This document shows, in pieces, positions 2,147 through 30,117 of a stretch of 37,650 nt of DNA. Below the pieces are notes generated by a model. The model made no database searches. It had not been told where the DNA came from and saw nothing but the letters and a program-made list of their open reading frames with translations. Location of the stretch: the NCBI GenBank assembly GCA_049999805.1, contig JBNGIO010005989.1, positions 1 to 37,650 on the forward strand, in the 5' to 3' direction. The DNA is from Folioceros fuciformis. Lineage: Eukaryota. The translations under genes and the position numbers were made by a program. The number at the start of each line of letters is the position of its first letter. The stretch's first letter is position 1.

Positions 2147-5100
2147 GCCATTAAGGGCTCTGGGTCTGTAATGATTGAATTACCTGACAGTTTATGGCTG
2201 ACTCTTACAGGCGTTTTGTTTGTTCCCTCCATTGTTGATTACGAAATTAGCTGAAGAACATTCCTATCGAGTCTGTTTTGATCATCAGGGTTGTTCTGTC
2301 ACCAGCGATGTCACCCGATCTGACTTGTTCCCAGGAACTACTTTCAACAATCTTTACCTTTTGAATGTGAGAACTCTGTCATGTCCAGCCACAGCTCATG
2401 TTACATAGCAAACTGACTTGTCTCCAACACAATTGTGGAAGTGCCGTCTTGGGCGTGTTAACTTTCATAAACTATCAAGCTTAGTTAACATTCATAAACT
2501 TTCAAGCTTAGTTAACAATGCCATTTTCCGAGACACCTTATCTTTTACCTTTGACAGTAAAGCATTCTGTGATTCCTGTCAACTTATCAAGGCCATCTCT
2601 AAGCCATATTCAGATCCAACTTATCTAGGGCCACCAGTCTACTCCACATAGTCCATAGTGATATTTGTGGCCCTATGTCCATAACGTTGTTTGGAGGAGC
2701 TTCATATTTCATCACCTTCTTAGACGAGTGGAGTCGTTACTGTACTGTTTATGTGCTTGCACACAAGAGTGAAGCCTTGCCCTGTTTCCAAGCTTACTTC
2801 GCATTAGCTCAATGTCAGACAGGACATAAGCTGAAAACTCTAAGAACTGACAATGGTGGAGAGTATACTAGCAATGATTTCACTTCATTCTGCGCTGAAG
2901 AGGGAGTTTTACACCAGTTCACTGTCCCCTATACACCAGCTCAGAATTCTTTTGCTGAACGGAAGAACAGGACTTTACAAGAAGCCACCCTTTCCAATCT
3001 TTCATTTGCGGGGCTTACTAGAGGTTATTGGGCAGAAGCTCTTATGGCTGCCACTTATGTCCAGAATAGGCTCCCCACCAAAGAGTTAGGCCTGATGACT
3101 TCCTATGAACATTGGACTGGTAAGAAGCCCCGTGTTTCTCATCTTTGTATATTTGGTGCTCCTACCTATGCCTTGGTTCCTTCTGCTCTTCGACATAAGT
3201 TGGATTTGCAGGCAGTGCGACGCATTTCCATAGGCTATTTTGATGAGGTAAAAGGGTACAAGCTTTTTGACCCTTCCACAAGGCAAGTCTCTTTTTCACG
3301 CAGTGTTGTTTTCCATGAACAAGCCCTCCTTCGACGACATGAAGCTGCTTTATCTCCTAGTTCTCTCACACCATTTGTTTTCATTCATGGTGTCCATGAT
3401 CATGAGGATACTGATGTGGATGCTACTATTTCAATTTTTGACTTGGATGACATTCCCAGCTCATCTTCCTTGGCTTCAAGGGGCAACACACAACTCGGTT
3501 CATCTACTCATCTTCAACCTGCAACACCAATAGCACCTGCAGCACCAGATGAGTCTTTTCCCTCCTTTGAACCCTTCGAAGCTGACATTTTACCTGATCT
3601 TGTTGCATAAGCTCCAGACCCTTTTGCATCTCCAGAACCTGCTTTGGACTCCATACCACAAACTGAACCAGAGCCAGACCCTTTGCCTGTACTAGTCTTG
3701 CATGGATCTATTTGCCATAGACCTCCACGTAGTGAATGGGCAGAACCCCCTTTTGTTGCTGGTCTTGCTTCCAGCCCAAACATTTTTCCTGTCTATTATG
3801 ATACTTCAAAACCAACTACTTACCAAGAAGCAATTGCAGGCCCTAAGGCTGAACAATGGAAGAGGGCCATTCAATCCAAGTATGATTCTTTGATAACCAA
3901 TAACACCTGGAAACTTGTTGACCTATCGAAGGGCAGAAAGCCAGTTGCATGTAAGTGGGTTTTCAAGAAAAATCTCAATACTGATGGCAATGTAGGTCGT
4001 TACAAGGCCAGGCTAGTCGCTAAAGGTTATAGCCAGATAGCAGGCTTCGACTATAATGAGACTTTTGCTCCAATTGTCAAGTCCAAATCAATCAATATAC
4101 TTCTTTCATTAGCAGCTCATTATGGTCTTCTAGTCCATCAGTTGGACGTAAAAACAGTTTTCCTTAATGGGTCATTAGAAGAAGAGATATATGTGATGTA
4201 GCCTGAAGGTTTTGAGATTGACATGGATAAAGTTTGTCAGTTGCTAAAGACTCTGTATGGTTTAAAGCAGTCTAGCCGAGCATGGAACTAAACTTTCCAT
4301 GCATTGCTGATAGAGTTAGGCTTACTTGTTTAGATGCAAATAGCAGTGTCTCTATCATTTGGGAAGGAGCAGATTTTTTAATTCTAGTGGTGGATGGGGA
4401 CAATAACTTCCTGTTCAGCACCTCTGCTGACTTGATGGCCAAAATTAAGCAAGTACTTCTTTCCCGTTTTGAAATGATCAACCTTGGACAACTTACTTTT
4501 TCTCTTGGTATGCAATTCCATTTTTCTGAGGACAAACATACCACGAGATTCATCAAGAGCATTTTATCCATCAGCTACTGTAGCGTTTGAATATGGCTGA
4601 TGCACGTCCTGTTTCCACACCTATGTCGATAGGTGACAAGTTATCTAAGGAGCAATGTCCATCGACTCAAGAAGAGAAGGACCTTATGGCAACTCGCCCT
4701 TATAGGCAAGCTGTTGGCAGCCTAATCTATTTGGCTGCATGGACACGTTTTGACATATCCAAGGCAGTAAGCTGCGTATCCCAGTTCTTAGAAAATCCTG
4801 GAGAGGTTCATTGGACTGCCATGAAGAGAATCTTCAGATATCTGAAGGGTACTTCTAGGCTAGGACTTACTTATACCAAGCAACCAGATGGACTTTTGCT
4901 TACTTCTTATAGCGATGCTAATTGGGCTGGAGACCTAGATAGTAGAAAAAGTGTAGCTGCCTATTGCAACTTACTTGGTGGCTCCGTTATTTCTTGGTCG
5001 AGCAAGAAGCTATCGACCATATGCCTATCATCTACAAAAGATGAGTATGGAGCCCTATCGCAGGCAGCTTGAGAAGTAATTTGGATACGATCCTTTTTGA

Positions 5101-8822: not shown

Positions 8823-9143
8823 TGTGCCAATGGATGGTTATGTTGGTACACAGCATAAGTCATATCAATGTAACGTTACTTCGAATGATTACTACTACAT
8901 GAGTCCAAGTGGGTCATCTTCTCCTGTGCCAATTGATGGTTATGCTCATACACTAGATTATGAGTCATATCAATGTAGCAATCCTATGAATGGTTACTGT
9001 TACATGAGTCCAAGTGGGTCATCTTCTCCTTCAAACCTGTGCCAATTGATGGTTATGCTGATACACTAGATTATGAGTCATATCAATGAAACAATCCTAT
9101 GAATGGTTATTGTTACATGAGTCCAAGTGGGTCGTCTTCTCCT
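8823..9143. repeat. Tandem repeat, ~102-113 bp unit, 3 copies
   Basis: tgtgccaat(t)gatggttatg...tacatgagtccaagtgggtcatcttctcct starting near 8823, 8925 and 9038. Confidence 0.9.
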
Positions 9144-9321
9144 TCAGGTGATAGTGCAGGTGAATTGATGCTGAATAAAGATGCAAATGAACCACTAATT
9201 GACACATTGAGAAGTGGTTAGAATAGACTATAGCTAGGCTGGTGTGGGCAAGAGGTTGGCTAGATTAGACAATAGCTAAATCAAAGTACAGTTTTGCTCA
9301 AAGTTTTGATTTGAAATGTTG

Positions 9322-9336
9322 AACCCTAAACCCTAA
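9322..9336 (+). promoter_or_regulatory. Telo-box-like motif (aaccctaaaccctaa) ~300 bp upstream of the PDF-motif gene
   Basis: Two overlapping plant telomere-type units. Function not demonstrable from sequence. Confidence 0.3.
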
Positions 9337-9639
9337 GATGGTTTTTCCATCTTGTTTTGTCAAATAAATAAATTACGTTTTGAATGTTGAACATTTATGA
9401 ATTTTTCGTCCATATACTTACTTCATAATACAAAGTTATACTTACACTCAAATACCGTATGTAGACATTGTACCTAGAGATGACGAGGGTGTCTTTGTGT
9501 GGGGGAATCAGCGCAAGGCAGGGCGAGGCAGGGCTAGGACCCGGTCCGGACCTAGGGCATTTTTGCCAAAGATTTGGCTCACAGATCCACCGGGGCTGAG
9601 GCCAAGGCCAGGGCATATGTATGTGGGAGCGCCGAAAAT

Positions 9640-11385
9640 ATGCCATCATCCCAGTGCTCGGTCGGCCTAGGCATGTCCGGTGTCTGCAACACGCATTCTG
9701 TCTTCCCATTGCTGGGTTGTAGTGCCCGCAGCAGACGACGGATCCTGCCTCTTCGGCAGCGGCAGCAGCTGGCTGGCAGTAGGCTGAGGGCTGGTGGCAG
9801 CTTCAGCCTCAGCTTCAGGCGTGGGCATCCGGCCACTGGACCTGCGTTTTCTGCTTCCCGGTGCGTCAGGATCAGAGCCCAGCTCAGTGACGGGCTTGGC
9901 GCAGACGTGCAGGGCTCCAAGCCCGCTGCTGGGGCTGGTGCGTGTGCATTTGAAGCTTGGTCGTGCCTTGTTGCCTATGCTATTGCCGCGTTTACTGCCA
10001 TCTCATGATTCTCTTCGATTCTTGTTGCCTCGGTGGCATTGCAGAGCCAGGGGACGGAGTTGAACAGCGGTGGCGCCTGTTTTTCTCCAATCCCAACCAG
10101 TGGTGGGATGATAGATACAAGAAGGTGAGTTCCCCACCTCCCTGGCTTCATTGCGCCCTTCATTCTTGTCTGGTTTTACCTGGCTAGCGCCCTAGCTAGG
10201 ATTCGAGGCAGCTGTATTCACCGGCAAGCCTGGTGTGCTGCCCTCTTGATCCAGAGGAGTCCCACCGACCCTGACTTTGTGAAGAAGGGCACCAGGGAAA
10301 CGCTGTGGATCGACAGCTCCACTCCCGCGTGGGTGCAACAAGAGCTGGCCAAGCTCCCTGCACAACCCAGGCCAGCGCCGCGGGGTCCTCCTCCCCCTTC
10401 GCGTCAGGGGCAGGGATACGGCAGCTCTCCACCAAGCACGGGCCCTTACAGACCTCCCGGCGGAGGAGCAGGAGCAGGGTCAGGAGGGAGCGGGTCGTTT
10501 GGCTACGGCGGGGGCCGGTATAACACCAGGGATACGAGGCCGCAGGTGTCGGAGGCCGAGCAAGCTGCTAGAGAGGAGCGTGCCAGGCAAATTCTGGCCA
10601 GCCCCATCGGAGGGAGCGGCAAGCCCGTGGACCCGAATGACACCCAGGAGGCGAGAGACGCCCGAGCGAAGGAGATTTTGGAGCGACCCATAGGAGGATA
10701 CCGGGAGAGGGTGCAGCCGACTGTGTCTCTCGGGGCCAAGCCGGGGACGAAGCCGGTGATGTCGGCCGAGGAAAGAATGGCTCGAGAGGAGAGGGCTAGA
10801 CAGATCGTGGCGTGCGTCCCGGGCACCATGCCCCCGGCCTGGCCCCCCGAGCCCGACGAGTACCCAGAGCTCATCGCCCTCGCCAAGGCCCGCCAGGACA
10901 AGGAACAGGAGGAGCGCGAGAAGCGAGCCAAGGAAATACTGGAGAGCCCTATCGGCGGCCGCCGCGACAGAGTCCAACCCACAGTGTCCCTGGGAGCCAA
11001 GGTGCCTCCCAAGCCCGTCATGTCCCCGGAGGAGCGCATGGCTAGGGAGGAGCGGGCCCGGCAGATCGTGGCTTGCGTCCCTGGAACCTACCCTCCGGCT
11101 TGGCCCCCAGAGCCGCACGAGTATCCTGAACTCATCGCTCTTGCCAAGAAGCGGGAGGAGGAGAGGCGAGCCGGCGGAGGGTTCCGCGGGGAGAGGGTGC
11201 AGCCTACCGTGTCTTTGGGAATCAAACCTCCCTTGACTCCGGAGCAGAGAGCTGCCAGGGAAGAGCGCGCCAGGCAAATCCTGGCCACGCCGCCTGGGAC
11301 GGCACCTCCGGCTTGGCCGCCTGAGTCGGAATCGCAATCGGAACTCAATTCTCCCCCTTCCTCCACTGCAGCAGAAGGCTCTTGA
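9640..11385 (+). CDS. Predicted organelle-targeted OSB-like PDF-motif protein with C-terminal repeats (~502 aa). Exons 9640-9937, 10045-10124, 10255-11385
   Basis: Exon 1 is S/R/A-rich, acid-poor and transit-peptide-like (..SRCVRIRA-Q). GT-AG introns 9938-10044 (phase 1; gtgcgt..ttgcag) and 10125-10254 (phase 0; gtgagt..atccag) join in frame to give EQRWRLFFSNPNQWWDDRYKK|RSPTDPDFVKKGTRETLWIDSSTPAWVQQELAKL, matching the PDF motif of OSB organellar ssDNA-binding proteins. No OB/SSB fold is evident. Start codon is inferred. Confidence 0.8.
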
Positions 11386-12553
11386 TGAGTTGAGTCGAGT
11401 TGTTTGCCGTCCTGCACTCTGTACAGGCTGTGTCCATTGCATCTCCGCTGGCAGCTCAACAGCGATATGGTGGAAGGTAGCACACGAAGGAGCAGTGTAG
11501 GGTAGTCTGTCAGTACTCCATGAGGTAGGGAATGGGGACGTTTGATCAGGGAGCTGGGAAGTTGCAACGGAGAGGGGGAAAGGTGGGTGATGGGAAAAGA
11601 AAAACCAGTCGCGGCATCAGAGAGTGGTCAGCTGTCTAGCTTTTTCCTCAGTACATGTGGCTCGGCTCCTATGGCAAGTTTAGTTGTGGAGCAAGATATC
11701 TCCCCTACTTAAGCCTTGGGTGTCTGCCCTGACGCAATTTGTGTACGGCTAGGCAAAGTTCTCTCCTCCCACAGCTTATGAGTTCAGAGAGATGGGAAGT
11801 TACACCATGTTCGACGAGACTTCACCCCTCCTCTAGATACACCTTTCGCATCTCCCATAACGCGCGTCGTCCTCTTCCTTCTCTGACTGTCTAGCTTCGA
11901 CACTACACTTTGCTCTCCATTTTTGTCCTCTTACACTGACAGCTTCGGAACTAACTTTCTCCTCCCGTTTCCTTCTCAGACGGTGCCTTCAACAACAACT
12001 TTGGCAGCCTCGTATTTGTGCTTTCAAGTTGTGCCCTAAACAAAGCCTGATCATGTAACCTGTTCCAACAACAAATGTTTATGTACAGTTGCCCAATTCT
12101 TCACGTCAATACCCCACGCCTGCCAGTTTCTGTTATCGTCTATCATCATTGTTAGCGATCCATGTCCCATGTCCACCACCCCAAAGGAAAAAAGCAAATG
12201 TATATGTGTACCTTGAGCCCCCGCTGGTTCGTCTCTTTGTTTTTTTTTTCCCCTCTTGAGGTTGAGCCCTGTGCCCAACTGCACCACTAACAATTTTCGA
12301 ACCAGCTCGCGCGAAATCCATTACGTACAACAAGTCCCTCTGGCGCCAAGCCTTGAAGGATTTCACAAGACCTTTGCCTGGAATTGCACAGGCCTCCAAA
12401 AGCCAAGCAAGAGCGACATGGTTACACAAAATAGGGCCATCAGTTTGGACAGGGATGGAGGCAAGCAGGCACATCAGCCCCGAGAAAAGTCAATATTCTC
12501 TGTGGCGGACAAAGTCGAGCACCCCTTACTACTTAGTTCACCACGGCCGGCTC

Positions 12554-15292
12554 TCACGGTCGGCCCTTACAACTGCAACAACCCGCTGCAAATCGATGCA
12601 CACGGTACCCATCCCTTACGACGATGTCTCTGTGTTCGAGCCTCGACATGATCTCCGTGGAACTGTGGCAGTCACTGCACATGCGTAAGTTCTTAGTAAC
12701 CACCAGAGATGTCCCACTCGGGGTGTTCAATAGACCGAAAGCCAGAGCTAGTTTCTCAGCATGCCCACAGAGCACATCTTCCTTTTCCTTCTCGCACAGA
12801 GGCTTTAACACCAACTTCGTGTGAGGTACATGGCCTCCTTCCTGCTTCAGGCGTGCAGTTGTGCTCTCTACTTTTAACGCAATATCCTCTCTTCTTTCTC
12901 CCACCACAAACTTATGTACCAGCTTTTTCACCTCAATGGTCGCCACTGCAGCTAACTTGTTGGCTCCTGCTACCGTTCTCTGTGTCTCAATCCTGTCTAC
13001 GTCGGCCCACCTACCTGCATCTGCGTAGACATTGGCCATGAGCACATAGGCAGCTGACCCCTGGGGGTCCAACCTCACAATGCTCTCGAAACAACGCATG
13101 GCCCTCCCTATATCCCCATGACTTTTGCAGGCAGTCAACAAAGACGTCAATCCCACAACATTACTTGGGTCCTCGCACCATGAAATCATGTTTTCCGCCT
13201 CATCTAAATGACCTGCACGCCCAAGAAGATCGATCATGCAATTGTAATGCTCAGTTGTAGGTTTGATGCCATGCTGCAGAGCCATGGAACGGAAGTGCTT
13301 GCGACCCTCATCCACCAATCCCTGATGGCTACACGCTCCTAGAAGGCAAGTAAAAGTAGCATCGTCAGGCTGAATACCTGCAACTAACATCTCCTCAAAA
13401 CAAGCTACTCCTCTTTGACCATCATCACAAGTACCATACCCAGATATGAGGGCATTCCATGTCACCACATCTTTTCTGTTCATGCTGTCGAAGACCTGGC
13501 GTGCATCTTCAATTCTACCACATTTCGCATACATGTCCACAAGGCTGGTGCCCAACACTACATTGTCCACAAGTCCTCTTTCCACGATCTGCGCGTGCAG
13601 CTGCCTGCCCTTCTGTAAGGCACCAGTGCTCGAACAGGCCTTCAGGAGGCACGCGAAAGTAACATGGTCAGCCAAAATCAGGCCCTCTTGCTCCATTCGT
13701 TGATACAGACCAAGTGCCTCTTGGCCAAGCCCTTGCTGTGCATACCCAGCAATCAGGGCATTCCATGTCACCACATTCTTTGTACCCGAACTTTCAAAAA
13801 CCCGGCGTGCATCTCCCAGCTCACCACATTTTGCATACATGTCCACGATGCAGGTGCCCACCAGTATGTCATCCCCCAATCCTCTTTGCACAATCTGTGA
13901 GTGGAGCTGCCTGCCCTTCTGCAAAGCACCAGTGCTAGCACACGCCTTCAGAAGACAGGCAAAAGTGACAACGTTGGCCACTGAAACACCCTCCTCCTCC
14001 ATCTGTCCATACAGAAGAAGCGCCTTACGTCCGAGACCTTGCTTGGCATAGCCAGCTATCAGTGCATTCCATGTCACCACATTCTTGGTGGTCATGCTGT
14101 CAAAAACCTGGCGTGCATCTTCCATCCCACCATATTTGGCGTACCCAGATATCAGGACATTCCATGTCACCACATTCTTTGTGGTCAAGCCGTCAAAAAC
14201 CTGGCGTGCAGCCTTCAGTTCACCACATTTTGCATACATATCCACCAGCCTGGCGCCAACCAACAAGTGAGGCGGAATGCCACTTTGCACCACATCATTG
14301 TGCACGTTTCTGCCCGCTCTCAAGTCAGCCGCAAATGCACAAGCTTGAAGGGCAGCTGCAAAGACGTGAGCATCTGCCTTCACTCCCGATCTACGCATCT
14401 CATGGTACAGCTGTATGGCCTCATAGGGTTTCCCATGGTTAGTATGAGCAGATATGATGGAAGACCACGTGATTACATCTGGCTTGCTTACCCTGTTGAA
14501 CACATCCACGGCCTCCTGCAGCCTACATCCAGATGCATACATTCGCAGAAAATGGTTCCCCAACAACGCATTCGACTCGTATCCAAGTTTCACACTAAGA
14601 TCATGAACTCGGCGCCCCAAAACCACATCCTTCTTCGCTGTACACAGTTTTAGCACGGTGCAAAACAGAGTCTGAGATATAGCATAATCTACCTGCGCCA
14701 GACATTCCAAGGCTCCAACGGCTTCAGACAGATTGCCCTGCTGGCATAACATACTCACTGTCCCAACCGTTACCCCGCCCATTTCCGCTTGTGCTCCAGT
14801 CCCAGATTCAGGGTTATCCGGACAACTAGACTTGGAAGGGGAGGCACCATAGCCCATCTGTCCATCCAAGGACACTAGCTGCAAATCAACCCAAGCTGGC
14901 TTGAGCATGCTGTTTAACCACAGGACCTCGCCAGAGCCCTTGCGCCGGAAGTCAGGCGAACGGTAGCTCTTCTTATCTCGCCTGTTATCCCACCACATGG
15001 TAGGCTCCAAAAAAAATTGCTGCCACAAGCGCTCCTGCTCCTCCTGCCTCAGGTCCTGCCAGCGACAATCGTCGGTGGAAAAGGCGTGCCGACCCACAAT
15101 CTGTCCAGGAAGTGCATGAGCTGGGCTCCGAGTCATTACACTACTGCTGCTGTTGCTCTTGGAAGCTTCCTTCACCAGGGATTGAGTCCCTGAAATGAGG
15201 TGCGCGGGAGCAGCTGGTAGAATCTCTGTAAACACACCAGTTGCAATTTGTTGTCTGGTCCATATCGGGTCCGGTTGGCATACCGTGACCAT
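12554..15292 (-). CDS. PLS-class PPR protein with E1-E2-DYW:KP (GRP-type) domain and N-terminal OSB PDF motif; candidate U-to-C RNA editing factor (PPR-1)
   Basis: 912-aa intronless ORF. L-S-P-L-S-SS-P-L-S-P-L-S-P2-L2-S2-E1-E2 array. Deaminase-type domain with HAEKLA, CSDCH and CSCKGRP end. PDF motif at aa ~86-142. Confidence 0.95.
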   Translation of the reverse strand: MVTVCQPDPIWTRQQIATGVFTEILPAAPAHLISGTQSLVKEASKSNSSSSVMTRSPAHALPGQIVGRHAFSTDDCRWQDLRQEEQERLWQQFFLEPTMWWDNRRDKKSYRSPDFRRKGSGEVLWLNSMLKPAWVDLQLVSLDGQMGYGASPSKSSCPDNPESGTGAQAEMGGVTVGTVSMLCQQGNLSEAVGALECLAQVDYAISQTLFCTVLKLCTAKKDVVLGRRVHDLSVKLGYESNALLGNHFLRMYASGCRLQEAVDVFNRVSKPDVITWSSIISAHTNHGKPYEAIQLYHEMRRSGVKADAHVFAAALQACAFAADLRAGRNVHNDVVQSGIPPHLLVGARLVDMYAKCGELKAARQVFDGLTTKNVVTWNVLISGYAKYGGMEDARQVFDSMTTKNVVTWNALIAGYAKQGLGRKALLLYGQMEEEGVSVANVVTFACLLKACASTGALQKGRQLHSQIVQRGLGDDILVGTCIVDMYAKCGELGDARRVFESSGTKNVVTWNALIAGYAQQGLGQEALGLYQRMEQEGLILADHVTFACLLKACSSTGALQKGRQLHAQIVERGLVDNVVLGTSLVDMYAKCGRIEDARQVFDSMNRKDVVTWNALISGYGTCDDGQRGVACFEEMLVAGIQPDDATFTCLLGACSHQGLVDEGRKHFRSMALQHGIKPTTEHYNCMIDLLGRAGHLDEAENMISWCEDPSNVVGLTSLLTACKSHGDIGRAMRCFESIVRLDPQGSAAYVLMANVYADAGRWADVDRIETQRTVAGANKLAAVATIEVKKLVHKFVVGERREDIALKVESTTARLKQEGGHVPHTKLVLKPLCEKEKEDVLCGHAEKLALAFGLLNTPSGTSLVVTKNLRMCSDCHSSTEIMSRLEHRDIVVRDGYRVHRFAAGCCSCKGRP

Positions 15293-16055
15293 GCTTCAAA
15301 GACTGACTTTCGGAAGACTGGGTACAAGTAACAAAAGTGCCCACCATCCAGCAGACCCACCAAAGAGCATGCCGCAGACCTGTCTACAACATTTGGGTGC
15401 TGTTAGCCAGAAGCCAGACTGGCGGATGTCCTGTACGCAGTTGTGGCAGGTGGACCACAGAGTTTTAGCACTCCCATGTTACAAACGTCCCAAAAGCACC
15501 ACACCCACGTCCCTGGAGAATCATCCAATCCGTCTTCGGGTTTTCCGAAAGGTTGGCTCTAGCACTGATTTATCGACCAGTCAGTCCAGTCATTGCAGTG
15601 AAGTGGGTTGAGAGACGAACTCTCAGTCACCATGGTTGCGTGGATTGAAACTGCCTCAGCTCTTGCAAGCACCGCTACAGAGGTTGAGTTTGTGGACTTC
15701 AAGACTTTGGCAGGAAAAGTTTTGCTCCACTGCACTGACATGCCGACAACCGAATGCAATCCGGTAGCCTGATTGCTCTCCTTTCCATAAGCACCGAAGA
15801 CGGGTCCTCCGGCTCTGGCCTGCACACTTCAGCACCGCCTCCAGGCGCTTCATCCGATTCAATGGCGGAGGTTCCTTGTGTTCATCCGTCCTTCCGGAAA
15901 AAACCTGTCAAGTGCGAAGCAGCCCACCGCCGTGGCGATGGGGGACACACGACCGGGTGCCCATTGCCGGCCAGCGGGCTACATAGAGTACAAGTGGTCT
16001 CCTGTACCTAGACTAACATGAAAACGAAAGCTTAGAGAGCAAAACTCCTTGACCG

Positions 16056-18596
16056 ATGGCCACCGTGTGGCAACTGGACCCGTTGTGGAGACAACACATT
16101 GCCATCGGTGTGTGTCCAGGGATTCCGGACGAACCTCCCGCTCAACGCACTGCGGAGGGTGGGAGTCGACCCCCGGCGAACAGCCAATCCTCTAGCTGCT
16201 GCAAGAGCGTTAGGAGTCCAGCAAATCCATTTCCGAGGAAACGTATGGGCGGGGACGGAGTTTCCATTGATGCTGAGCAGCAGGATTCCTTGGATTTGCA
16301 GATGGGTCAGCAGTCGAGATCTCCGGACAGGCCTAAACCTGGGAGGCGTGCACGATCGAAATTGGGACTGGGCCTCGTCACGCCTGGAACGGTGAGCATC
16401 TTATGTAGGCAGGGGAGGCTTTCTGAGGCGGTTGGAGCTCTGGAGTCTATGGCGCGCACAGACTCTGCCATTTCTCAGTCTCTATTATATACTGTAATTC
16501 ATCTGTGTACAGTTAGGAAGAATTTGGTTGCGGGGCGACGAGTTCATTGTCTCACTGCCGAACTCGGTTGCGACTCGAATGCGTATGTGGGGAACCACAT
16601 CTTGCGCATGTATGCGCGCGGAGGCAGACTGCAGGAGGCCATGGATGTGTTCACCAGGGTAGGCAGGCCAGATGTCTTCATGTGGGGCTCCATTATCTCA
16701 GCCCACGCTAAACATGGGAAGCCTAATGAGGCTATATACCTCTACCACGAGATGCGTAGGTCAGGGGTGGAGGCAGATGCTCACGTATTTGCTGCTGCCC
16801 TTCAGGCTTGTGCGTGTGCTGCCGACTTGGAATCTGGAAGAAAAGTGCACAGTGATGTGGTGCAGAGTGGCTTTCATATCAACTTATTTGTTGCCAACTG
16901 CCTGGTGGACATGTACGCGAAATGTGGCCAACTGGGAGATGCACGCCAAGTCTTTGATGACATGGTCACAAAGGACGTGGTGACGTGGAATGCCCTGATA
17001 TCCGGCTACGTCAAATGTGGTGAACTGAAAGGTGGACGCCAGGTGTTTGACAGCATGAGCACAAAGAATGTGGTGACATGGACTGCCTTGATCGCTGGGT
17101 ATGTCCAGCACGGGCTTGCACATGAGGCGCTTGAACTGTACGCACGAATGGAGCAGGAGGTACTCATTTTGGCTGACCACGTTACTTTTGCTTGCCTTCT
17201 GAAGGCCTGTGCAAGCACTGGTGCCCTACACAAGGGTAGGCAGCTGCACTCACTGATTGTCGAAAGAGGACTGCTGGATAACGTGCTGGTGGGTACCTGC
17301 CTGGTGGACATGTATGCAAAGTGTGGTGAACTGCGAGATGCATCCCGAATTTTCGACAGGCTGGCCACAAAGAACGTCGTGACATGGACCTCGCTCATTG
17401 CTGGCTATGCGCAGCAAGGACTTGGTCAGGAGGCTCTTGTTGTATATGGACAGATGGAGGAGGAGGGTGTTCTTTTGGCTGAGGATGCTACATTTGCCTG
17501 CCTTCTAAAGGCCTGTGGTAGCACTGGCGCCTTACAGAAGGGCCGCCAGCTCCACTCACACATTGTAGAAAGAGGATTGTTGGATAATCTGGTGCTGGGC
17601 AACTGCTTGGTGGATATGTATGCAAAATGTGGTGAACTGGAAGATGCCCGCCGGGTTTTCGACAGCTTGGCCACAAAGGATGTGGTGACATGGAATGCCC
17701 TCATATCTGGGTATGGTACTTGTGATGATGGTCTGAGAGCGCTAGCTTGTTTCGAGGAGATGTTATCCGGTGGTATGCAACCAAATCATGTAACTTTCAC
17801 TTGCCTCTTGGCAGCATGCAGTCATGAGGGTCTGGTCCACGAGGGTCGCAAGTACTTCGATTCCATGGCTGACCACTATGGCATCAAACCTTCTACAGAG
17901 CATTACAATTGCATGATCGATCTTCTTGGCCGTGCAGGGCGTTTAGATGAGGCTGAAAAGATGCTATGGCTATGCCATGGGCAAAGTAATGTTGTGGGCT
18001 TGAGGGCTCTGTTGAATGCCTGCAAAAATCATGGGGATATTGAGAGGGCGATGTGGTGCTTCGAAAGCATTGTGAGGGTGGACCCTCAAGGGGCGTCTGC
18101 GTATGTGCTCATGGCCAATGCCTACGCAGATGCAGGTATGTGGACCGATGTGGACAGGATTGAAAGGCAGAGAATGGTAGCAGGAGCTAATAAGAAACCT
18201 GCAGTGGCGACCATTGAGGTGAAGAAACAGGTACATCGATTTCTGGTGGGAGACAGAAGAGAGGATGTTACGCCAAAGGTGCAGAGCACAAATGCACGTC
18301 TGGAGCAGGAAGGTGGCCATCTTCCTCACACGAAGTTGGTGTTGAAGCGACTGTGCGAGAAGGAAAAGGAAGATGTGCTTTGTGGGCATGCTGAGAAGCT
18401 AGCTCTGGCTTATGGTCTAGTGAACACGCCAAGTGGGACTCCTCTGGTGGTAACGAAGAACCTACGCATGTGCAGTGACTGCCACAGCTCAACGGAGATC
18501 CTGTCAAGGCTTGAACAGAGAGACATTGTTGTCAGAGATGGGTACCGTTTGCATCGATTCGCAAATGGTTTCTGCAGTTGTAAGGGTAGGCCTTGA
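16056..18596 (+). CDS. PLS-class PPR protein with E1-E2-DYW:KP (GRP-type) domain; candidate U-to-C RNA editing factor (PPR-2)
   Basis: 846-aa intronless ORF with the same motif order as PPR-1. KKPAVATIEV box at ~18192, HAEKLA, CSDCH, C-terminal CSCKGRP. Confidence 0.95.
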   Translation: MATVWQLDPLWRQHIAIGVCPGIPDEPPAQRTAEGGSRPPANSQSSSCCKSVRSPANPFPRKRMGGDGVSIDAEQQDSLDLQMGQQSRSPDRPKPGRRARSKLGLGLVTPGTVSILCRQGRLSEAVGALESMARTDSAISQSLLYTVIHLCTVRKNLVAGRRVHCLTAELGCDSNAYVGNHILRMYARGGRLQEAMDVFTRVGRPDVFMWGSIISAHAKHGKPNEAIYLYHEMRRSGVEADAHVFAAALQACACAADLESGRKVHSDVVQSGFHINLFVANCLVDMYAKCGQLGDARQVFDDMVTKDVVTWNALISGYVKCGELKGGRQVFDSMSTKNVVTWTALIAGYVQHGLAHEALELYARMEQEVLILADHVTFACLLKACASTGALHKGRQLHSLIVERGLLDNVLVGTCLVDMYAKCGELRDASRIFDRLATKNVVTWTSLIAGYAQQGLGQEALVVYGQMEEEGVLLAEDATFACLLKACGSTGALQKGRQLHSHIVERGLLDNLVLGNCLVDMYAKCGELEDARRVFDSLATKDVVTWNALISGYGTCDDGLRALACFEEMLSGGMQPNHVTFTCLLAACSHEGLVHEGRKYFDSMADHYGIKPSTEHYNCMIDLLGRAGRLDEAEKMLWLCHGQSNVVGLRALLNACKNHGDIERAMWCFESIVRVDPQGASAYVLMANAYADAGMWTDVDRIERQRMVAGANKKPAVATIEVKKQVHRFLVGDRREDVTPKVQSTNARLEQEGGHLPHTKLVLKRLCEKEKEDVLCGHAEKLALAYGLVNTPSGTPLVVTKNLRMCSDCHSSTEILSRLEQRDIVVRDGYRLHRFANGFCSCKGRP

Positions 18597-20645: not shown

Positions 20646-23600
20646 TGTAGGTAATCTGCATGAGCATCCATGTACGGCAAGGCACGATGCCTAAGAGAGG
20701 GACAACCTCACAGGTGTCTAGGAGGAAGGTATGCATAGACACAGGCAATTCCTTCCCCGCAGTGACGGGTTTCATCTACTCGAGTTGCCAGGAGAACGAT
20801 AACACATTTACTTTCCGGCAACCTGCTTTGCAACACGCAGCCCACCCTAACAGCTCAAGGCACAGCGTGAGCCCGTCATCCTTCCCTTGCAGAAGCGCAT
20901 CGGTAATTCCTCCAGCCGTTCCTGTATCGCCAATCAGTTGGTACCCAGACAAACAGGCTAAGGAAATTTAAGCCCTCATTGAGTTGGAAGACTACATGCG
21001 GAAGCGTGTCTTCTACACAAAAGTTTTAATAAAGAATAATTAAGAAGTACACTTAATTGTCCTTTTATAGGTATCATCCTAAAGGGTGTGTCCTTTCACT
21101 AGCCTAGCTAACTAATCCAACAGTTACTTTGCTAAGCTATCTTGACCTAAGGTTACATAACTCAAGTGGACTGCTACCTCTTCTAACTCTCCCTCTCAGT
21201 CACGTTAGAGTTATGAGAGCTCTTATAGAGATCAGTGCTTGTGAAAGTCTTTTAATGTAAGCTATCTACTTCAGCTCGGCTGTCAAATCTTCCAGTCGCT
21301 GACACTGTCAAGAAGTCTGTCGCAGACGACAACCCTTACAGTAGCGCACTAGTCAAGACCAGAACAGAAGTAATACACCAATTTCAGTTATCCTTGCACT
21401 TGATGGAGTCAGAAGAGATATCTTCACCACGTCTTCAAACTTTCCTGAGAGACAAAACTACTACAGTCTACAAGACCAAGTCCTTCCCTATGAAAACAAT
21501 GTCTGAATTTAGGAAGTGACTTTGTCAAGACATCAGCCATAGTAAGATCTGTAGGCACATACTGTATCTTTACTAAGCCCCTCTCAGCAGCACCTCTAAC
21601 ATAATGATGTTGTATCTCGATGTGCTTAGTGCGGGCATGAAACACAGGATTAGCCATCAAGGCAATGGCTGACATATTATCACTGTTGAGAATAGTGGGT
21701 CCCTTTTGATGCATTCCCAAATCCTCGCATAATTTCCTTTCCCACTCAGCCTCCTTCGTAGCTTCTGTCAATGCTTTGTACTCTGACTCAATACAAGACA
21801 AAGAAATAGAGGCTTGTTTCCTACAGGACCAATTTATCACTGTGGAAACAGCAAGGAAACAATAGGAAAGACTTTTGCGGGTATCAGCATCAGAAGCCCA
21901 ATCAACGTCTACGTAACAACTGAGCTGTAGACGCTTCTTCCCGCTGGGTTTGTAGCAGAGACCATAATTCGGAGTACCCTTTAGGTATCGCATTATTCTT
22001 TTGACTGCAACCCAGTGGTCTCTTCCTAGATTCTCAGAGAATTGAGCAACTGCATTCACAGTGTTAGATATGTCTGGTCTGGTCCAATTGCTAAGAAACA
22101 TGAGAGTTCCTACTGCCATTCAATATGGCACACTCTCCATTTCCTTCTTATCCTCATCAGACTGCGGACATGATGAGGAAGACAGCTTGACACCAACCGC
22201 ACCTGGAGTGGCTGCTGCTCGTGCATTTTCTAGATTAAACTTCTTCAACATCCCTGCAACATATCTCCCCTGATGAAGATAGATAGCTCTAGTGGACCTA
22301 TCTTTATGTACATGCATTCCAAGAATATACTTAACTTGACCAAGGTCTTTCATGTCAAACTCTTTACTGAGATCTACCTTAATCTGGTTAACCAGCTCCA
22401 CATTGTTACCTGGAATGACCAAGTCATCCACGTATAATGCTATTAATACAATTGAACTGTCTTTTCGCAGTACATAGAGATTGGTATCTGATTCACATTG
22501 CACAAAGCCAATCTTCTTGAGGTATGTATCAATTCGCTTGTACCATAGTCGTGGGCTTTGTTTGAGCCCATATGTACAGCGAAGAAGTTTACACACCTTA
22601 TAAGGATGTTTCTTATCCTCATAGTCCTCAGGCTGATCCATATATATTTCTTCTTCTAAATGACCATACAGAAAGGCTGTGCAGACATCCAGTTGGTAGA
22701 TGGTAAGGTTGAGTTCAGCACAAAGGGCTAGAAGCATCCTAATAGATGTTGCTTTGACAACAGGAGAGTAAACCTGGTCACCCTCATAGTCTACTCCCTC
22801 TCGCTGACTATAACCCTTGGCCACTAACCTTGCTTTGTATCTTATCCGGGGTTCTACCTCTTGAAATTTGGTTTTTAGTACCCACTTACACTTGACTGTA
22901 GTCCTGCCTGCAAGAAGATCCACTAATTGCCAAGTGTTATTTTTGACTAGAGAGTTATACTCATCGTCAATAGCTAATTTCCACTTATCAACTTCCAGTC
23001 TTGAATATGCTTCTCTAAGTGTGAGAGGATCTCCCTCTGAAAGAGCAAAGCTAGTAGCAAGAGAATACACCATGGGATAGACCCCAATATAACCAGCTTG
23101 ATTAAATTCTAGATCAAAAGGTTTTTCACCCCACAAATGTCTTGGTTGTCTTTGGCGTGAAGGATACCTGCGCTTAGGTACACTAGCATCTGTCCTCTGA
23201 GGCGAGATGTGAACATCTGCTGCAAGTATATCATTAGGAAGATACATATCTTGAGCAGTACCCATGGAGCCTTCACCTTCATCTTCCTTCCTTCGAGCAG
23301 AAGCCAAAGCTGCTAGGGATGAAGGATCCAATGGCATGGAACCATCAGGAAATGATGAAGAAGGGAAGTCAAAGGAGACATGGATATCGTTAAGAGGACG
23401 AGGACTATGGGTCGGAGAGCGGTCATCCTTGTCGCCATCCAGAATGGGGCCATGAGACGGAACATAACCTTCATCAAAAGTAACCATTCATGCAAAGACC
23501 GGAGTATGAGAGTGAGTGTCAACTAGCTTATAAGCCTTGCAGGCCTCCCCGTAGCCAACAAACACAAGTTTCCGCGCTCGAGAAGAAAGCTTGTCGCGTA

Positions 23601-25800
23601 GGGGGGAAGGGACATAGGCATAGGCGAGTGAGCTAAAAACCCGAAGATGAGAAATAATTGGCTTGTAACCAAACCAGCATTCAAAAGGAGTACGGCCAGC
23701 GACTGCCTTTGTAAGAAGCCGGTTCTTAATATAAGTAGCTGTGGAAATGGCCTCAGCCCAAAAAGACTTTGGCAGACGAGACTGGGCTAGCATAGCCCTG
23801 GCCATGGCAAGAAGATCGCCATTGGCCTTCTCCGCAATGCCATTCTGAGCAGAAGTGTAGAAAACCGTGAACTGCCGGGTTATCCCTCGTTCTTCACAGA
23901 ATGCTTGGAAGAGCTAATTGTTGAGTTCTCCAGGAGGCATTGTCAGAACGAATGCACCGCAGCTTGCACCCAGTGTGCAGCTCGGCCATCGAGACAAAGG
24001 GTTGGAACACACCAAAGGAGTCACTCTTGAGGCGGAGCGGATACATAAAGGAATAACGAGAATAATCATCTACGATTGTCATAAAATGGCGGGCTCCGCC
24101 TAAAGAAGTGACAGGAAGAGGTCCACACAAATCAACATGAACTAGTTCCAAGGGCTGAGACGCCCTGTGAGCAGGAAGACTAGAGTAAGGTGCACTTCGC
24201 TGCTTGGCCAACACACAGGCTTTACACAATGGTGGAGTCTTGGCCAAGGCGGGAAGCTTATCACGATAGAGATCCTGCATGGACATGGCAAGTAACTTGG
24301 CAGAGTTAAGATGCCCAAGCCTACAGTGCCATAAGAAGGTTGGCCCGGAGGACTGGGGCCTAGCTTGTAGTGCATCCTTGGTAGAATCCACAGCCGCAAC
24401 GCTGGAAGAATACACAAGGGTGCCGGAGAATATATATAGATCACTCTGGAGATTTCCTCGTGCTACCACTTGATGGGGCTTGGAGGGTCGATAGAGTAGA
24501 CAATTCTCTTTGCCAAACTCTAATTTATAAAGACCATCGTGCATAAGTGTCGAACGGAGATAAGGTTCTTTGCCATTTGCGGAACATGAAGTACATTCGT
24601 CAGCAGAAGGGTGGAATTATCTTCTAATGTGAAGGTCACATTCCCTGTGCCGAGTATGGCAAGACCAAAGTCATCTCTTAATAGCACATACTGAAGAGGA
24701 TCAGGTGACGCCGCATAGGTTGTAAACATATGCTTGGAACTGCAGATATGAGCAGTAGCTGCGGAGTCAATGAGCCACGATGTCTTTAATGCTGATGCAA
24801 CTAGGCACAGTGTAAGAGCAATCTCTGGTTTAGTCTGAGTCTTGGCCTTAGGAAGAACAGCCGTATTAGCGGACTTGAGCTCCCTCTTAGCCTCACCAGC
24901 TTGCTTCTTCTTGCACTCCCTCTCCCAATGGCCCGGAATTTGACACTAGTTACAAGTGCCTTGTTGCTTCTGGGTCTTGGAGGTAGAGGCAGAAGAAGCA
25001 GATTTTGGGTCAGTGTTTGAAGACATCCGCTTTGTGGGATTGTTGCTTCTCTTAGGCTGATGTTGAGACCGCCCTCGTGTCACAAACATCACTCGCTCAC
25101 CACCATGCTTAGATGTGCCAGTATTATAGCGAGAAGCCTCCTCTTGTAGGAGCGCCCCAGCAATCTCGGACATAGTAAGTGTGGATTGACCACCAGCCGC
25201 CTATGCTCGCTGAGAGTTACGGACCGACTGGTTGTGTGAAGAGACAAAAGATTGATAGCTAGTCGGAAGACTAGCCAGCAATTGTACAGCAGTATCGAAC
25301 TCAGACATAGTAGTGCCTAGTGCAGCCAAATGTGCCCGGAGGTAATGAAAACAACTCACCTGGTGGGCAATACTATCGCCTGGTTGCATACGAAGAGTAT
25401 AGAACTCCTGGCGCACTGTGACCAGGGTCATCACATTAGTGGATTGATAAATATCATTTATCTAATTCCACGCTTCTGCTGCTGTAGTTGCACCATCGGT
25501 ATGGTGTAATGTAGTGTTGTAAACACCAGATATTAACATATGCATGGCCTGACGATCAAGTTTTAACCAAGCTTCGACAGCCGACTGAGGTGCCAGAGGC
25601 TTGGTTGAAGTTCCTTCCACGATAGAAAGCAAATCTCGTGTATTCAAGGTTGTTTTCATACGTCGAGACTAGACTTCATACTTTGTACCGTTAAAATGGT
25701 CTTTTTCTTTCAAATCAGTTGATACGTTCATCACATGTATCACTGGTGCAACTGAGGGAGTAGTCATCGACATGAGGGTATTCGTTCCTGACATAATATT
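20646..25800 (-). mobile_element. Degenerate Ty1/copia element C: gag-PR-INT-RT-RNase H and 3' LTR (20646-21188); 5' LTR/PBS missing
   Basis: gag from ~25794 (HFNGTKYEV*SRRMK). Zinc knuckle CN*CQIPGHWEREC at ~24913-24954. Protease WLIDSAATAH at ~24750-24777. Integrase HVDLCGP. RT YVDDL in 22120-23487. RNase H in 21424-22119. PPT gagagggag at ~21189-21197. TATA-like ctataaaagg in the LTR. LTR ends CA at 20646 on the minus strand. Confidence 0.93.
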
Positions 25801-28030: not shown

Positions 28031-29095
28031 TAGAAAGATTCAGATAGAAATAGTCTAGTCTAGCAGCAGCATATATATAATAGACCTGTAAATAAAACCA
28101 TACGTAAATAACTACAAAAAATATATCCAAAGACTTGAAACCCTAACTGCCGGGTGTACATAAGGTGCCGTGCATCTAATGAAATGCTTTTTCTCTCTCC
28201 TTTCAAAGATTTCTCTTTGGTATCAGAGCGAGGCTCTCACGAGATCGTGCACCCACACACTCAAATCCGGATGTAGCATGGCCAAATCCAAACTTGCCTA
28301 GCCACGTTGTGCACGGACACATGCACGCGCTCCAGACCCACTCGCGTGCGCCCGTTTTTGGCGCCGCGAGCCCGTTTTTAAGAGGCGCCAGCAACGAAGG
28401 GGTGCATGTTCCGCTGGATTGCCCACAGATCTAAGCGCGTGGACATAATTAGATGGTCGCCTGGTGTGCGCGCAGCCAGATCCATGAGCGCGCCCCGATT
28501 GCACGCCTGCAGATCCAACGGCGGCGTCTGCAGATTAGCACGGCAGCGCCAAGGGTTTTGCAGCTGTCCTAGCATGCACGCTAGCAATCCGTTGAGCGCA
28601 CATGTGATTTGAAAGGCGCGCGCCTACAAACTCGTGTGCGCTCGCCTCAGCGACCAGATTGGAGGACATGCGAGATGGCAGCTGTGGGCGTTGTTGCATT
28701 TTTCTGAGAACCCGAGCAATTCTGCAATTTTGCAATTCTGCCCACATGAAACTTTGCCACCATGCCGCATCGAGGCAACTGTAGGAGGCGCCATGCAACA
28801 GAGCAAGACGGGGATCCTACATCACATTTCCTATCAGACATAGGAGAGGCTCTTGCACGCTCACTTAGTCATGCAGGTCAGGGGAAGCCTCGATCACACC
28901 GCCCTACACTAGCACCCCTCGTAAGCCTAACCCACAATCATATTTCTGTGCACGCTATAAACAATTGGGACACCTAAGCACTAGAGCGAATTCAGATTCC
29001 CTAGACCAGGTGCGTCCATTGATCAAGGGGTGCACAATCACATCACGTTTCTGGAGCACAGCTTGGAGAGAGAGTTTGTGAGGCTGCAGGTTGTG
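28031..29095 (+). mobile_element. 5' end of another LTR element: LTR (~28031-28217), tRNA-iMet PBS, GC-rich leader, possible degenerate gag
   Basis: Interrupts the RNase H at ~28030. TGGTATCAGAGC at 28218-28229. Confidence 0.65.
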
Positions 29096-30117
29096 TCGTA
29101 CACTTTATACCCCTTTATGCCTTTTGAATATCCCACAAAAATCATCTGCTTTGCTTTGTAGTCGAGCTTTGTTCTTTGCTCCTTGTGTATGTGCACATAG
29201 ACCTTGCACCCAAAGATCTTAAAGTGAGAGATAGCTGGCTTCTTACCCGTCCAGCGTTCGAAGGGGGTGGAGTCTTTGAAGGTTGATGTGGGAATTCGAT
29301 TTTGAATGTAGGTGGCTATGTGTACTGCCTCTGCCCAGTACCTCCTTGATAATCCCGATTGATACAGCATGGCTTTAGCTGCTTCTTGTAGATATCGATT
29401 CTTAGATTCAGCAAGTGGGTTCTGGCTGGAGGTGTATGGGACAGTGATCTGCCTCCCTATACCAAGAGATCTACAGTAGTCCTGGAAGTCAGTGCTGTTG
29501 AACTCCCCTCCTCCGTCACTGCGAAGAGTTTTCACCTTATTCCTAGTTTGCCTTTGTGAGAAATTCACATAATCCATAAATCTCTCAAGTGCCTTTGATT
29601 TGTGGCGCAAGAAATATGTCATTGTGAAGCGATTGTAGTCGTCCACAAGCACCATAAAATACAGTGCGCCTCCAAGTGATTGGACGGACATTGGCCCGCA
29701 TAAATCTGTATGCACCACGACAAGGGTTTCCGTGGCTCTATTTTGCTCATGAGGCTTCTTGGCATTCTGCTTGGGGAGTTTTGCATGCACACATGCGTCA
29801 CAAAGCACATCCACTTCGGGGACTGTCCAGGGGACCTCCTCTTGGTATAAATGTTCACCCACCATGCTCTTCATTTTGTTGTAGTTTGGGTGTCCCAAGC
29901 GACAATGCCACAACAGCTGATTACTATCTACATCTAAGTGCCTGGCCAGATGCGTCCGAGGATGTGAGTTATTCACATGTATTCCAACATAAGTACGACA
30001 GTTGAGCCTATACAGGTCTAAATCCAACGCTCCGATGGCCATCTCGGCATGAGTTTTGCTATCAACCAGTCTACACTGCTTTTCATCGAAGCTCACTTTG
30101 ATGCTCCACTCTTGACA
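29096..30117 (-). mobile_element. Copia fragment D (GAG-pre-integrase + integrase)
   Basis: LWHCRLGH, CDAC, HTDLCGP, LRSDGGGEF, YWAEAV, GYSKGIKGYKVYD. Confidence 0.92.

Follow-up and report, generated by a model that had tools for sequence, protein, structure and literature searches.

We report that a gene in a 37,650-nucleotide stretch of DNA (hereafter, the window), probably from a hornwort, encodes a PDF-PPR-E-DYW:KP(GRP) protein, P0001, in which the PDF motif of the OSB proteins precedes a PPR array that is followed by a deaminase-like domain. This architecture is not a one-off: PDF-PPR members occur among the E-type, canonical DYW and KP proteins.

Results

Gene and protein layout

The list of open reading frames and the translation give a single intact, intronless frame of 912 codons plus a stop, with the parts laid out in Table 1. 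By composition (17 S+T, 7 K+R and 6 D+E in 83 residues), the presequence is a putative organelle transit peptide. Met1 and the first ~70 codons can be aligned with the neighbouring paralog P0002; no alignment with P0282, a second relative discussed below, is possible. Pfam recognizes the PPR array (PPR, 2.3e-78; PPR_2, 6.3e-79), the E_motif at residues 725-787 (1.2e-10) and, at the C-terminus, the DYW deaminase PF14432 (7e-32).

Table 1. Parts of the P0001 gene and its neighbour in the window
Feature	Position	Strand	Basis
P0001 gene	12554..15292	-	ORF translation; Pfam PPR, PPR_2, E_motif, DYW_deaminase
Ser/Thr-rich presequence, residues 1-83	15044..15292	-	composition; alignment with P0002
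PDF motif, residues 84-143	14864..15043	-	OSB-side HMM; invariant columns; AF2 pLDDT
Low-complexity Gly/Ser/Pro linker between PDF motif and first PPR, residues 144-176	14765..14863	-	GQMGYGASPSKSSCPDNPESGTGAQAEMGGVTV; low pLDDT
PLS-type PPR array and E1/E2 motifs, residues 177-779	12956..14764	-	Pfam
DYW:KP deaminase-like domain, GRP subtype, residues 780-912	12557..12955	-	PF14432; motif positions; alignment
Head-to-head paralog P0002, 846 aa, GRP type, without PDF motif	16056..18596	+	alignments; PDF HMM

Contigs of sequencing run X1 cover 14395-14918 and 14975-15500 onward with 0 mismatches; the second continues for more than 1 kb beyond the start codon of P0001 into intergenic DNA and may itself be DNA. 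No contig among those listed bridges 14919-14974, and the runs are only guessed to be RNA. At position 14964, within the PDF motif, 52 contigs with at least 85% identity were found in the run that holds the mismatch-free pieces of the gene, and 81-86 in runs from two other organisms. This pile-up is a hint that the PDF motif may be multi-copy, although a number of contigs does not translate into a number of genes.

Identity of the PDF motif

The 60-residue motif, EEQERLWQQFF..WWDNR..K..PDF..K..G..LWL...P.WV..L..LD, is a genuine PDF motif, with homology far beyond chance, as judged from the comparisons that follow. A phmmer search with an 86-residue segment against 1.84 billion representatives matched 583 proteins with E<=1e-3; of these, 161 stayed within E<=1e-10 and 17 within E<=1e-30. 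The matches include proteins named OSB1, OSB2, OSB3 and OSB4 in many angiosperms, some of which carry the Pfam SSB domain PF00436. The literal PDF tripeptide (P113-D114-F115 in P0001) occurs in 149 of the 150 matches listed, and in most of these it is preceded by WWxN at a distance of 13 residues, just as in P0001 (W100/P113). An HMM of 62 positions, built on the OSB side from 439 motif instances in 200 non-PPR proteins matched by phmmer, aligns through its positions 2-61 with residues 84-143 at 75.6 bits, compared with a maximum of 8.8 bits when residues 1-170 were shuffled 1000 times. Identity with the motif of a Eutrema protein named OSB1 is 58%, and P0001 retains every column found invariant in a set of 9 PPR-fused PDF motifs (14/14). 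Aromatic and basic residues are numerous (5 W, 3 F, 1 Y and 10 K+R in 60).

The sequence-only reading, which had proposed an OSB-type PDF motif between the putative transit peptide and the first PPR, is thus borne out on both the homology and the in-frame position. The peptide that it quoted is present on the minus strand and in frame; the placement given, 14867-15037, is one codon off and translates to QERLWQQ...LVSL, whereas the 57 quoted residues are residues 87-143 of P0001, at 14864-15034 of the window.

On the motif itself, Pfam yields only a chance match to zf-FLZ (E 0.12); the database has no model for it, which is why the motif has been missed by domain surveys. Neither PF00436 nor any other OB-fold was found by Pfam in P0001 at E<=1, the remainder of the protein being PPR, E and DYW. 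P0001 therefore shares a module with the OSB proteins but is not itself an OSB.

In an AF2 model (mean pLDDT 80.5), the PDF motif reaches about 90 and is predicted as a helix, short strands and a second helix, whereas the linker (model residues 71-91) is at about 50; the model thus suggests a small, confidently predicted fold on a flexible linker. Searches for a solved relative gave only chance sequence matches in the PDB (E about 1), no Foldseek match of the motif model to the PDB at E<=0.001, and no VIA-align match with a Z of 5 or more among 48,161 chains, the highest being 4.5. The predicted fold would accordingly lack a solved relative in these searches, a result that does not by itself make the fold new.

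The DYW:KP domain

The C-terminal domain of 133 residues carries HAE at 844, K867 (domain position 88), CSDCH at 872 and the terminal CSCKGRP, and aligns with HSE/DYW proteins with a 4-residue gap at the HPQS position. As described in the available excerpts of PMC9478123 and PMC11845758, the GRP subtype is marked by HAE in place of HSE, a final GRP, Lys88 and a shorter domain without xHP. The assignment of P0001 to the GRP-type DYW:KP factors, made already from the bare sequence, holds on HAE, the lysine at domain position 88 and the GRP end. In place of the PG box, P0001 has NKLAAVATIEV and P0002 NKKPAVATIEV; P0001 thus has KL where the name leads one to expect KP, and other HAE proteins vary at this position too (KKLA, KKVA). 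With its P/L/S array, E motifs and HxE...CxxC zinc site, P0001 has the make-up of a PLS-class PPR-DYW editing factor, and with its GRP-type domain it is a candidate U-to-C editing factor. According to the excerpt of PMC9478123, U-to-C editing has been shown only for the designer proteins KP2, KP3 and KP6, and KP2 and KP3 edit U to C without any PDF-like module.

Paralogs with and without the motif

P0002 is 65% identical to P0001, with a gap of ~66 residues at the PDF motif, and the PDF HMM finds no match in it. At the DNA level, ~190 nt of the 5' region of P0001 are absent from P0002. An apparent relic of the motif in P0002 (EQQ..L.Q...SRSPD), a protein-level impression, was dropped, as the DNA alignment shows no clear relic; consequently, gain and loss are not separable from the P0001/P0002 pair alone. 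P0282 (950 aa, HAE, ending in GGRP) is 53% identical to P0001 overall. It retains the motif, which scores 68.8 bits, while the presequence and linker of P0282 are not alignable with, and in the case of the linker not conserved relative to, those of P0001. Conservation of the motif between diverged flanks suggests that it is under selection. Of 5 GRP-type proteins in all, only 2 have the motif (P0001 and P0282, as opposed to P0002, P0288 and P0324), as does 1 of the 9 HAE-type homologs in the top list, so that the motif is dispensable for at least some close relatives of P0001.

Spread of the PDF-PPR architecture

Besides P0001, we found 67 PDF-PPR proteins. Among the 248 motif-bearing proteins collected, 48 have 1-3 N-terminal PDF motifs located 15-35 residues ahead of a PPR array, and among the 120 best full-length homologs, 24 carry the motif (19 of 115 new ones and 5 from the earlier set). 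The named sources are Sphagnum, Calypogeia, Selaginella, Diphasiastrum, Adiantum, Ceratopteris and Pteridium. A canonical HSE or ...DYW-type domain or end is present in 15 of the 67 (7 + 8), and a KP domain in one (P0282); most of the remaining proteins end after the E motif. A single-segment word-index search of limited sensitivity, restricted to near lengths, matched only P0006. A tree of the motif (59 columns, weak support, 6 starred of 98) suggests a single origin of the fusion. Taken together, these comparisons indicate that PDF-PPR arose early among the PLS-class PPR proteins of non-seed land plants and has since been passed on vertically and lost many times.

Two expectations of the sequence-only reading do not survive this survey. 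Given the PDF-PPR set, non-seed plants contradict the premise that PLS-DYW factors normally lack an additional folded domain at the N-terminus. A special link to the U-to-C clade is at odds with the E-type or canonical DYW ends of most PDF-PPR proteins, and co-occurrence with DYW:KP is only partial, the adjoining paralog being among those without the motif.

Our literature search returned no report of a PDF-PPR fusion; supplementary files, which lie outside that search, may bear on novelty.

Discussion

PPR arrays read RNA 5' to 3' from the N- to the C-terminus. An N-terminal PDF motif would therefore be placed on the RNA immediately 5' of the PPR footprint, and we consider it fairly probable (about 0.6) that the motif of P0001 acts there as a cis, sequence-independent grip on single-stranded nucleic acid. 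Such a grip could increase the affinity or the on-rate or prevent the target from folding, would do within one chain what trans-acting MORF/ORRM helpers do in seed plants, and would be independent of the direction of editing. A broader proposal, that PDF-PPR is an ancestral land-plant cis booster of PLS editors, lost from PPR proteins once the MORFs of seed plants arose, is considerably more tentative and rather doubtful as it stands.

What is known of the OSB proteins bears on this interpretation. The statements of reviews on their ssDNA binding reportedly go back to Zaegel 2006. The PDF motif of AtOSB1 is described as sufficient for ssDNA binding, and OSB1/2 as preferring ssDNA over dsDNA or RNA (excerpts of PMC6963530 and PMC4166229). 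By analogy, this preference would fit a DNA tether better than a grip on RNA. Under such a scenario, the motif would hold the editor on nucleoid ssDNA (transcription bubbles, replication or recombination intermediates) and concentrate it at nascent RNA, or else the protein would have a DNA-related role of its own. Binding of ssDNA in preference to RNA is indeed the only biochemistry reported for PDF motifs in these excerpts, and the motif of P0001 is homologous to that of the OSB proteins over its full length. Nevertheless, we regard the tether as unlikely: the motif always lies directly ahead of an RNA-binding array, on a linker of 15-35 residues, an arrangement suited to contacting the RNA strand that the array binds, and close paralogs without the motif would miss the tether.

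It is quite improbable that the motif is not a nucleic acid binder here at all but a protein-protein or self-association module, involved in editosome recruitment or oligomerisation. AtOSB2 is reported as a tetramer (excerpt of PMC6963530), PDF-PPR proteins carry 1-3 tandem copies, and the predicted fold, for want of a solved relative, speaks neither for nor against it; yet most of the conserved positions are aromatic or basic (W, F, R, K), as is typical of single-strand contacts, and the PDF motif alone is the part reported to suffice for ssDNA binding. Loss of function in mature P0001, through removal of the motif with the transit peptide or as a relic nearing loss, might be suspected from the motif-free P0002, P0288 and P0324, from a motif only ~83 residues from the N-terminus and from a gene known here from DNA. 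We give this explanation very little credence, because the invariant columns are all intact, with a score equal to that of other family members, the frame is open throughout, P0282 conserves the motif between flanks that have diverged beyond alignment, and the motif lies at a similar distance from the N-terminus (about 60-150 residues) in moss, liverwort and lycophyte proteins. Finally, although P0001 and P0282 are of the GRP type and have the motif, the view that it is an adaptation peculiar to the U-to-C (DYW:KP/GRP) clade and bound up with the reverse reaction is hardly credible, being contradicted by the 15 PDF-PPR proteins with a canonical domain or end, the mostly E-type remainder and the 8 of 9 HAE-type homologs without the motif.

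P0001 can be compared with several known systems. Like the OSB proteins, it is a putative organelle protein, and the homology with them extends over the whole motif, with the signature W..FF..P..WWDNR..K..PDFKHK.TGE.LWL...P.WV; however, in OSB proteins the 1-3 PDF motifs are C-terminal and come after an SSB-like OB-fold, whereas in P0001 the SSB domain is absent and the motif is N-terminal to the array and the deaminase-like domain. GRP-type DYW:KP PPR proteins of hornworts are reportedly the subject of Gerke 2020. With these and with the designer proteins KP2/KP3 built from them, P0001 shares the PLS array, E1/E2 and a 133-residue DYW:KP domain with HAE, K88, CxDCH and the GRP end; an N-terminal module is absent from the descriptions of the hornwort proteins in the excerpts of PMC9478123 and PMC11845758, and the native N-termini are omitted from the designer proteins (excerpt of PMC9478123). 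The PDF-PPR proteins of databases (for example, Selaginella XP_024517303, Adiantum KAI5076972, Ceratopteris KAH7429238, Sphagnum KAH9545198, many Diphasiastrum O6H91_* entries and Calypogeia proteins) resemble P0001 in the presequence, 1-3 PDF motifs (unannotated), short linker and PLS array, but end in an E motif or canonical DYW; among those found, only P0001 and P0282 combine the motif with KP/GRP.

MORF proteins act in trans, binding the PPR array. MORF/RIP, ORRM and RRM-PPR proteins such as PPR4 offer, by analogy, a parallel to an accessory module that may raise RNA binding by PLS PPR proteins; their folds are unrelated to the PDF motif. MORF genes are confined to seed plants according to the excerpt of PMC13386178, and no seed-plant PDF-PPR protein is among the matches listed in three sequence searches; the two ranges are complementary, and the idea of one substituting for the other is a correlation only. 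If PDF-PPR is indeed an ancestral cis booster of PLS editors, the many native editing factors assayed so far without their N-termini would have been tested in crippled form, and grafting the motif onto designer PPR-DYW editors (C-to-U or U-to-C) should give more activity or less need for cofactors.

Accounts of PLS-class PPR editing factors usually list a transit peptide, a PPR array, E motifs and a DYW domain. Heterologous assays discard the sequence upstream of the first PPR, where the PDF motif sits; PPR56, for instance, was cloned with only 14 native residues ahead of the first PPR (excerpt of PMC10482289). Dozens of proteins from mosses, liverworts, lycophytes and ferns, and from this probable hornwort, have in this region a conserved module with a predicted fold and a probable capacity to bind nucleic acid, which would be a component of the non-seed-plant editosome that has so far been missing. 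Through this module, the working of editing without MORF proteins becomes directly testable, and programmable editors, both C-to-U and U-to-C, are candidates for its addition. The shared PDF module, moreover, links the OSB family of DNA maintenance with a family of RNA editing.

Results

A segment ahead of the PPR array of P0001, a PPR-DYW protein encoded in the window, is a PDF motif of the kind found in plant OSB proteins. A phmmer search with residues 65-150 of P0001 (86 residues) against 1.84 billion representative proteins yielded 583 matches at E<=1e-3, 161 at E<=1e-10 and 17 at E<=1e-30. The literal PDF tripeptide occurs in 149 of the 150 matches listed, usually 13 residues downstream of WWxN, with identical spacing in P0001; a typical match comprises 250-500 residues, with 2-5 motif copies close to the C-terminus. 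Many matches in the profile search are named OSB1, OSB2, OSB3 or OSB4 by their source (Eutrema, Raphanus, Linum, Brachypodium, Tarenaya and others), and some of these contain the Pfam SSB domain. Because circularity had to be avoided, the HMM used for verification was built from 439 motif instances in 200 matched proteins, all lacking a PPR tract. Against this OSB-side model, residues 84-143 of P0001 scored 75.6 bits (positions 2-61 of 62), compared to at most 8.8 bits for 1000 shuffles of residues 1-170; the paralog P0002 gave no match. The OSB-type motif proposed in the sequence-only reading is thus borne out, and homology is secure. The peptide quoted there is found at residues 87-143 (window 14864-15034); the interval assigned to it, 14867-15037, is one codon off (it translates as QERLW...LVSL).

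In the reviews PMC6963530 and PMC4166229, the PDF motif is defined by 50 residues with a Pro-Asp-Phe signature, present in 1-3 copies behind an OB-like fold, and is described as sufficient for ssDNA binding in AtOSB1. OSB proteins possess an SSB/OB domain whereas P0001 has none, and therefore P0001 is not an OSB but only shares the PDF module with this family. Three other proteins, P0004 (Kingdonia uniflora, 1160 aa), P0011 (908 aa) and P0005 (719 aa), carry 9-13 tandem PDF motifs as opposed to the 1-3 described for OSBs. The green-algal match P0188 (eukprot Ulvmu1 identifier, 491 aa) combines an SSB domain with PDF motifs, in agreement with the reviews, which consider the motif older than land plants. 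The motif nearest to that of P0001 (62% over 58 columns) belongs to P0062, a short Logan protein (162 aa, 19 kb contig) that lacks PPRs and has a long presequence; it could be a PDF protein in its own right or only a first exon. A single gene model, P0044 (Coptis chinensis KAF9616283, 1526 aa), places PDF motifs (residues ~295-387) before the motor domain of a kinesin, which represents either a further fusion partner or merged gene models.

AlphaFold2, applied to residues 70-160 with a 48-row alignment, returned a mean pLDDT of 80.5 (~90 over the motif, ~50 in the linker that follows). The predicted order is a long helix, short strands at the PDF turn and a second helix. The folded module is tethered by a flexible linker to the PPR array that follows it. 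In the searches made, this confident small fold has no solved relative: Foldseek gave no match in the PDB at E<=0.001, and the best Z in exhaustive alignment to 48,161 chains was 4.5. This lack of a relative is not informative on function.

Residues 1-170 of P0001 have no Pfam match at all. P0001 and P0002 (12554-18596), both of the GRP-type PPR-DYW:KP class, share 65% identity, have start codons 763 bp apart and are surrounded by Ty1/copia fragments; Ty1/copia debris (Pfam RVT_2, rve, gag_pre-integrase) makes up most of the remaining window. This head-to-head pair amid transposable elements fits the expansion of intronless PPR genes by a retroposition/TE-linked route described in PMC13386178. 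Degenerate interstitial telomere-like units (GTTAGGGTTAGGTTAGA, 4.9 copies, 69% matches) adjoin retroelement fragments at 36011-36100. G+C content is 0.635 in 33001-36000 (GC skew 0.24), 0.563 in 9001-12000 and ~0.45 elsewhere. No Pfam domain was matched in the long ORFs at 10246-11385 (+) and 10480-11442 (-).

Features of P0001 and of the surrounding window
Feature	Position	Strand	Details
P0001 ORF	12554-15292	-	single open frame, 912 codons
PPR repeats in P0001			Pfam PPR 2.3e-78, PPR_2 6.3e-79
E motif in P0001	residues 725-787		Pfam
DYW deaminase domain in P0001	residues 820-910		Pfam, 7e-32
P0002, second PPR-DYW gene	16056-18596	+	846 aa, head to head with P0001
Ty1/copia RVT_2/rve/gag_pre-integrase matches	3-2171, 2675-3610, 22120-23487, 23894-24544, 29038-30216, 31024-31971

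The C-terminal 133 residues of P0001 contain HAE (844), Lys867 (position 88), CSDCH (872) and a terminal CSCKGRP, and in the alignment lack the four residues where canonical DYW domains have HPQS. According to PMC9478123 and PMC11845758, the hornwort GRP variant of DYW:KP is marked by HAE, Lys88 and a GRP end, and GRP-based designer proteins carry out U-to-C conversion. The earlier GRP-type assignment agrees with all three features in P0001, and this type points to a hornwort as the probable source organism. The N-terminal box (residues 780-789, window 12926-12955) reads NKLAAVATIEV, with KL instead of KP; P0002 has KP (NKKPAVATIEV), whereas P0001 lacks the name-giving proline. This position also varies in other HAE-type proteins in the alignment.

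PPR tracts are present in 8 of the 150 phmmer matches listed, from Adiantum, Ceratopteris, Pteridium, Selaginella, Diphasiastrum and two Logan contigs. A profile of nine PPR-borne motifs, searched against 5877 candidates, matched 247 proteins (120 listed). Among 248 pooled proteins, 48 have 1-3 N-terminal PDF motifs with a PLS array 15-35 residues downstream. Within the best 120 full-length P0001 homologs, the motif occurs in 19 of 115 new proteins and the 5 already found, including three PDF-PPR proteins of the liverwort Calypogeia fissa and two Sphagnum clusters with members from four species. A second PDF-PPR-DYW:KP(GRP) protein, P0282 (Logan, 950 aa), is 53% identical to P0001 and has HAE and a GGRP end. 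No source-named seed-plant PDF-PPR protein appears among the matches listed, and none of the 16 gymnosperm PPR proteins among the best 120 homologs has the motif.

The proposed link of the fusion to the U-to-C clade does not hold: among these 120 homologs, the motif is found in only 1 of 9 HAE-type proteins; with the two window genes included, 2 of 5 GRP-type proteins carry it; and all seven DYW-bearing members of the 48 end in GDYW. We therefore reject the clade-specific reading; the fusion is neither a one-off nor bound to U-to-C editing.

Between P0001 and P0282, the presequence and linker are unalignable but the PDF motif is kept, as would be expected if purifying selection acted on the motif as such. 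P0001 and P0002 have Met1 and ~70 N-terminal codons in common, and DNA alignment shows that P0002 lacks ~190 nt containing the motif; gain and loss are indistinguishable from this pair alone. PPR-borne motifs group together (6 label changes compared to 33.8 in shuffles) in a tree built from 101 motif instances, and the P0001 motif groups with fern PPR motifs; support in this 59-column tree is weak. Because PPR-borne motifs cluster and are spread over all non-seed lineages, we read PDF-PPR as an old fusion that was lost repeatedly. Position 14964, within the motif, is covered by 52 contigs (contigs, not genes) at >=85% identity from a run with 0-mismatch pieces of the P0001 gene, and by 81-86 contigs, likewise not genes, at this identity in runs of two other organisms, a further hint.

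Discussion

The presence of the PDF motif in P0001 is confirmed, and its functional reading is tentative. When a PPR array binds RNA, its N-terminal repeats face the target's 5' side, and the DYW domain lies at the nucleotide to be edited. The conserved module, rich in aromatic and basic residues (5 W, 3 F and 10 K+R in 60 residues), would contact the single strand immediately 5' of the PPR footprint, presumably independent of sequence, and so might add affinity or keep the site unfolded, in C-to-U and U-to-C factors alike. This putative contact is, in our view, the most likely mode of action. The main rival, tethering of the factor to single-stranded DNA in nucleoids, matches the ssDNA preference reported for OSBs. 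Less probable are a protein-contact module and a motif with no role in the mature protein.

In the literature covered, no paper describing a PPR protein with a PDF motif came up, although a prior mention elsewhere is possible. The words OSB, PDF and single-stranded are absent from a 2026 kingdom-wide survey of editing-factor domain fusions, and the motif is not among the extra domains described for Physcomitrium PPR proteins (RRM, LAGLIDADG, SMR, NYN, CBS, SAP). The PDF motif has no Pfam model, which would explain why these fusions, already public but unannotated, have been overlooked.

Taken together, the finding is better viewed as a PDF-PPR architecture that is widespread in non-seed plants and so far undescribed, of which P0001 is a KP/GRP-type example. 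MORF genes, according to PMC13386178, occur in seed plants only, and the complementary ranges of PDF-PPR and MORF, a correlation only, are suggestive.
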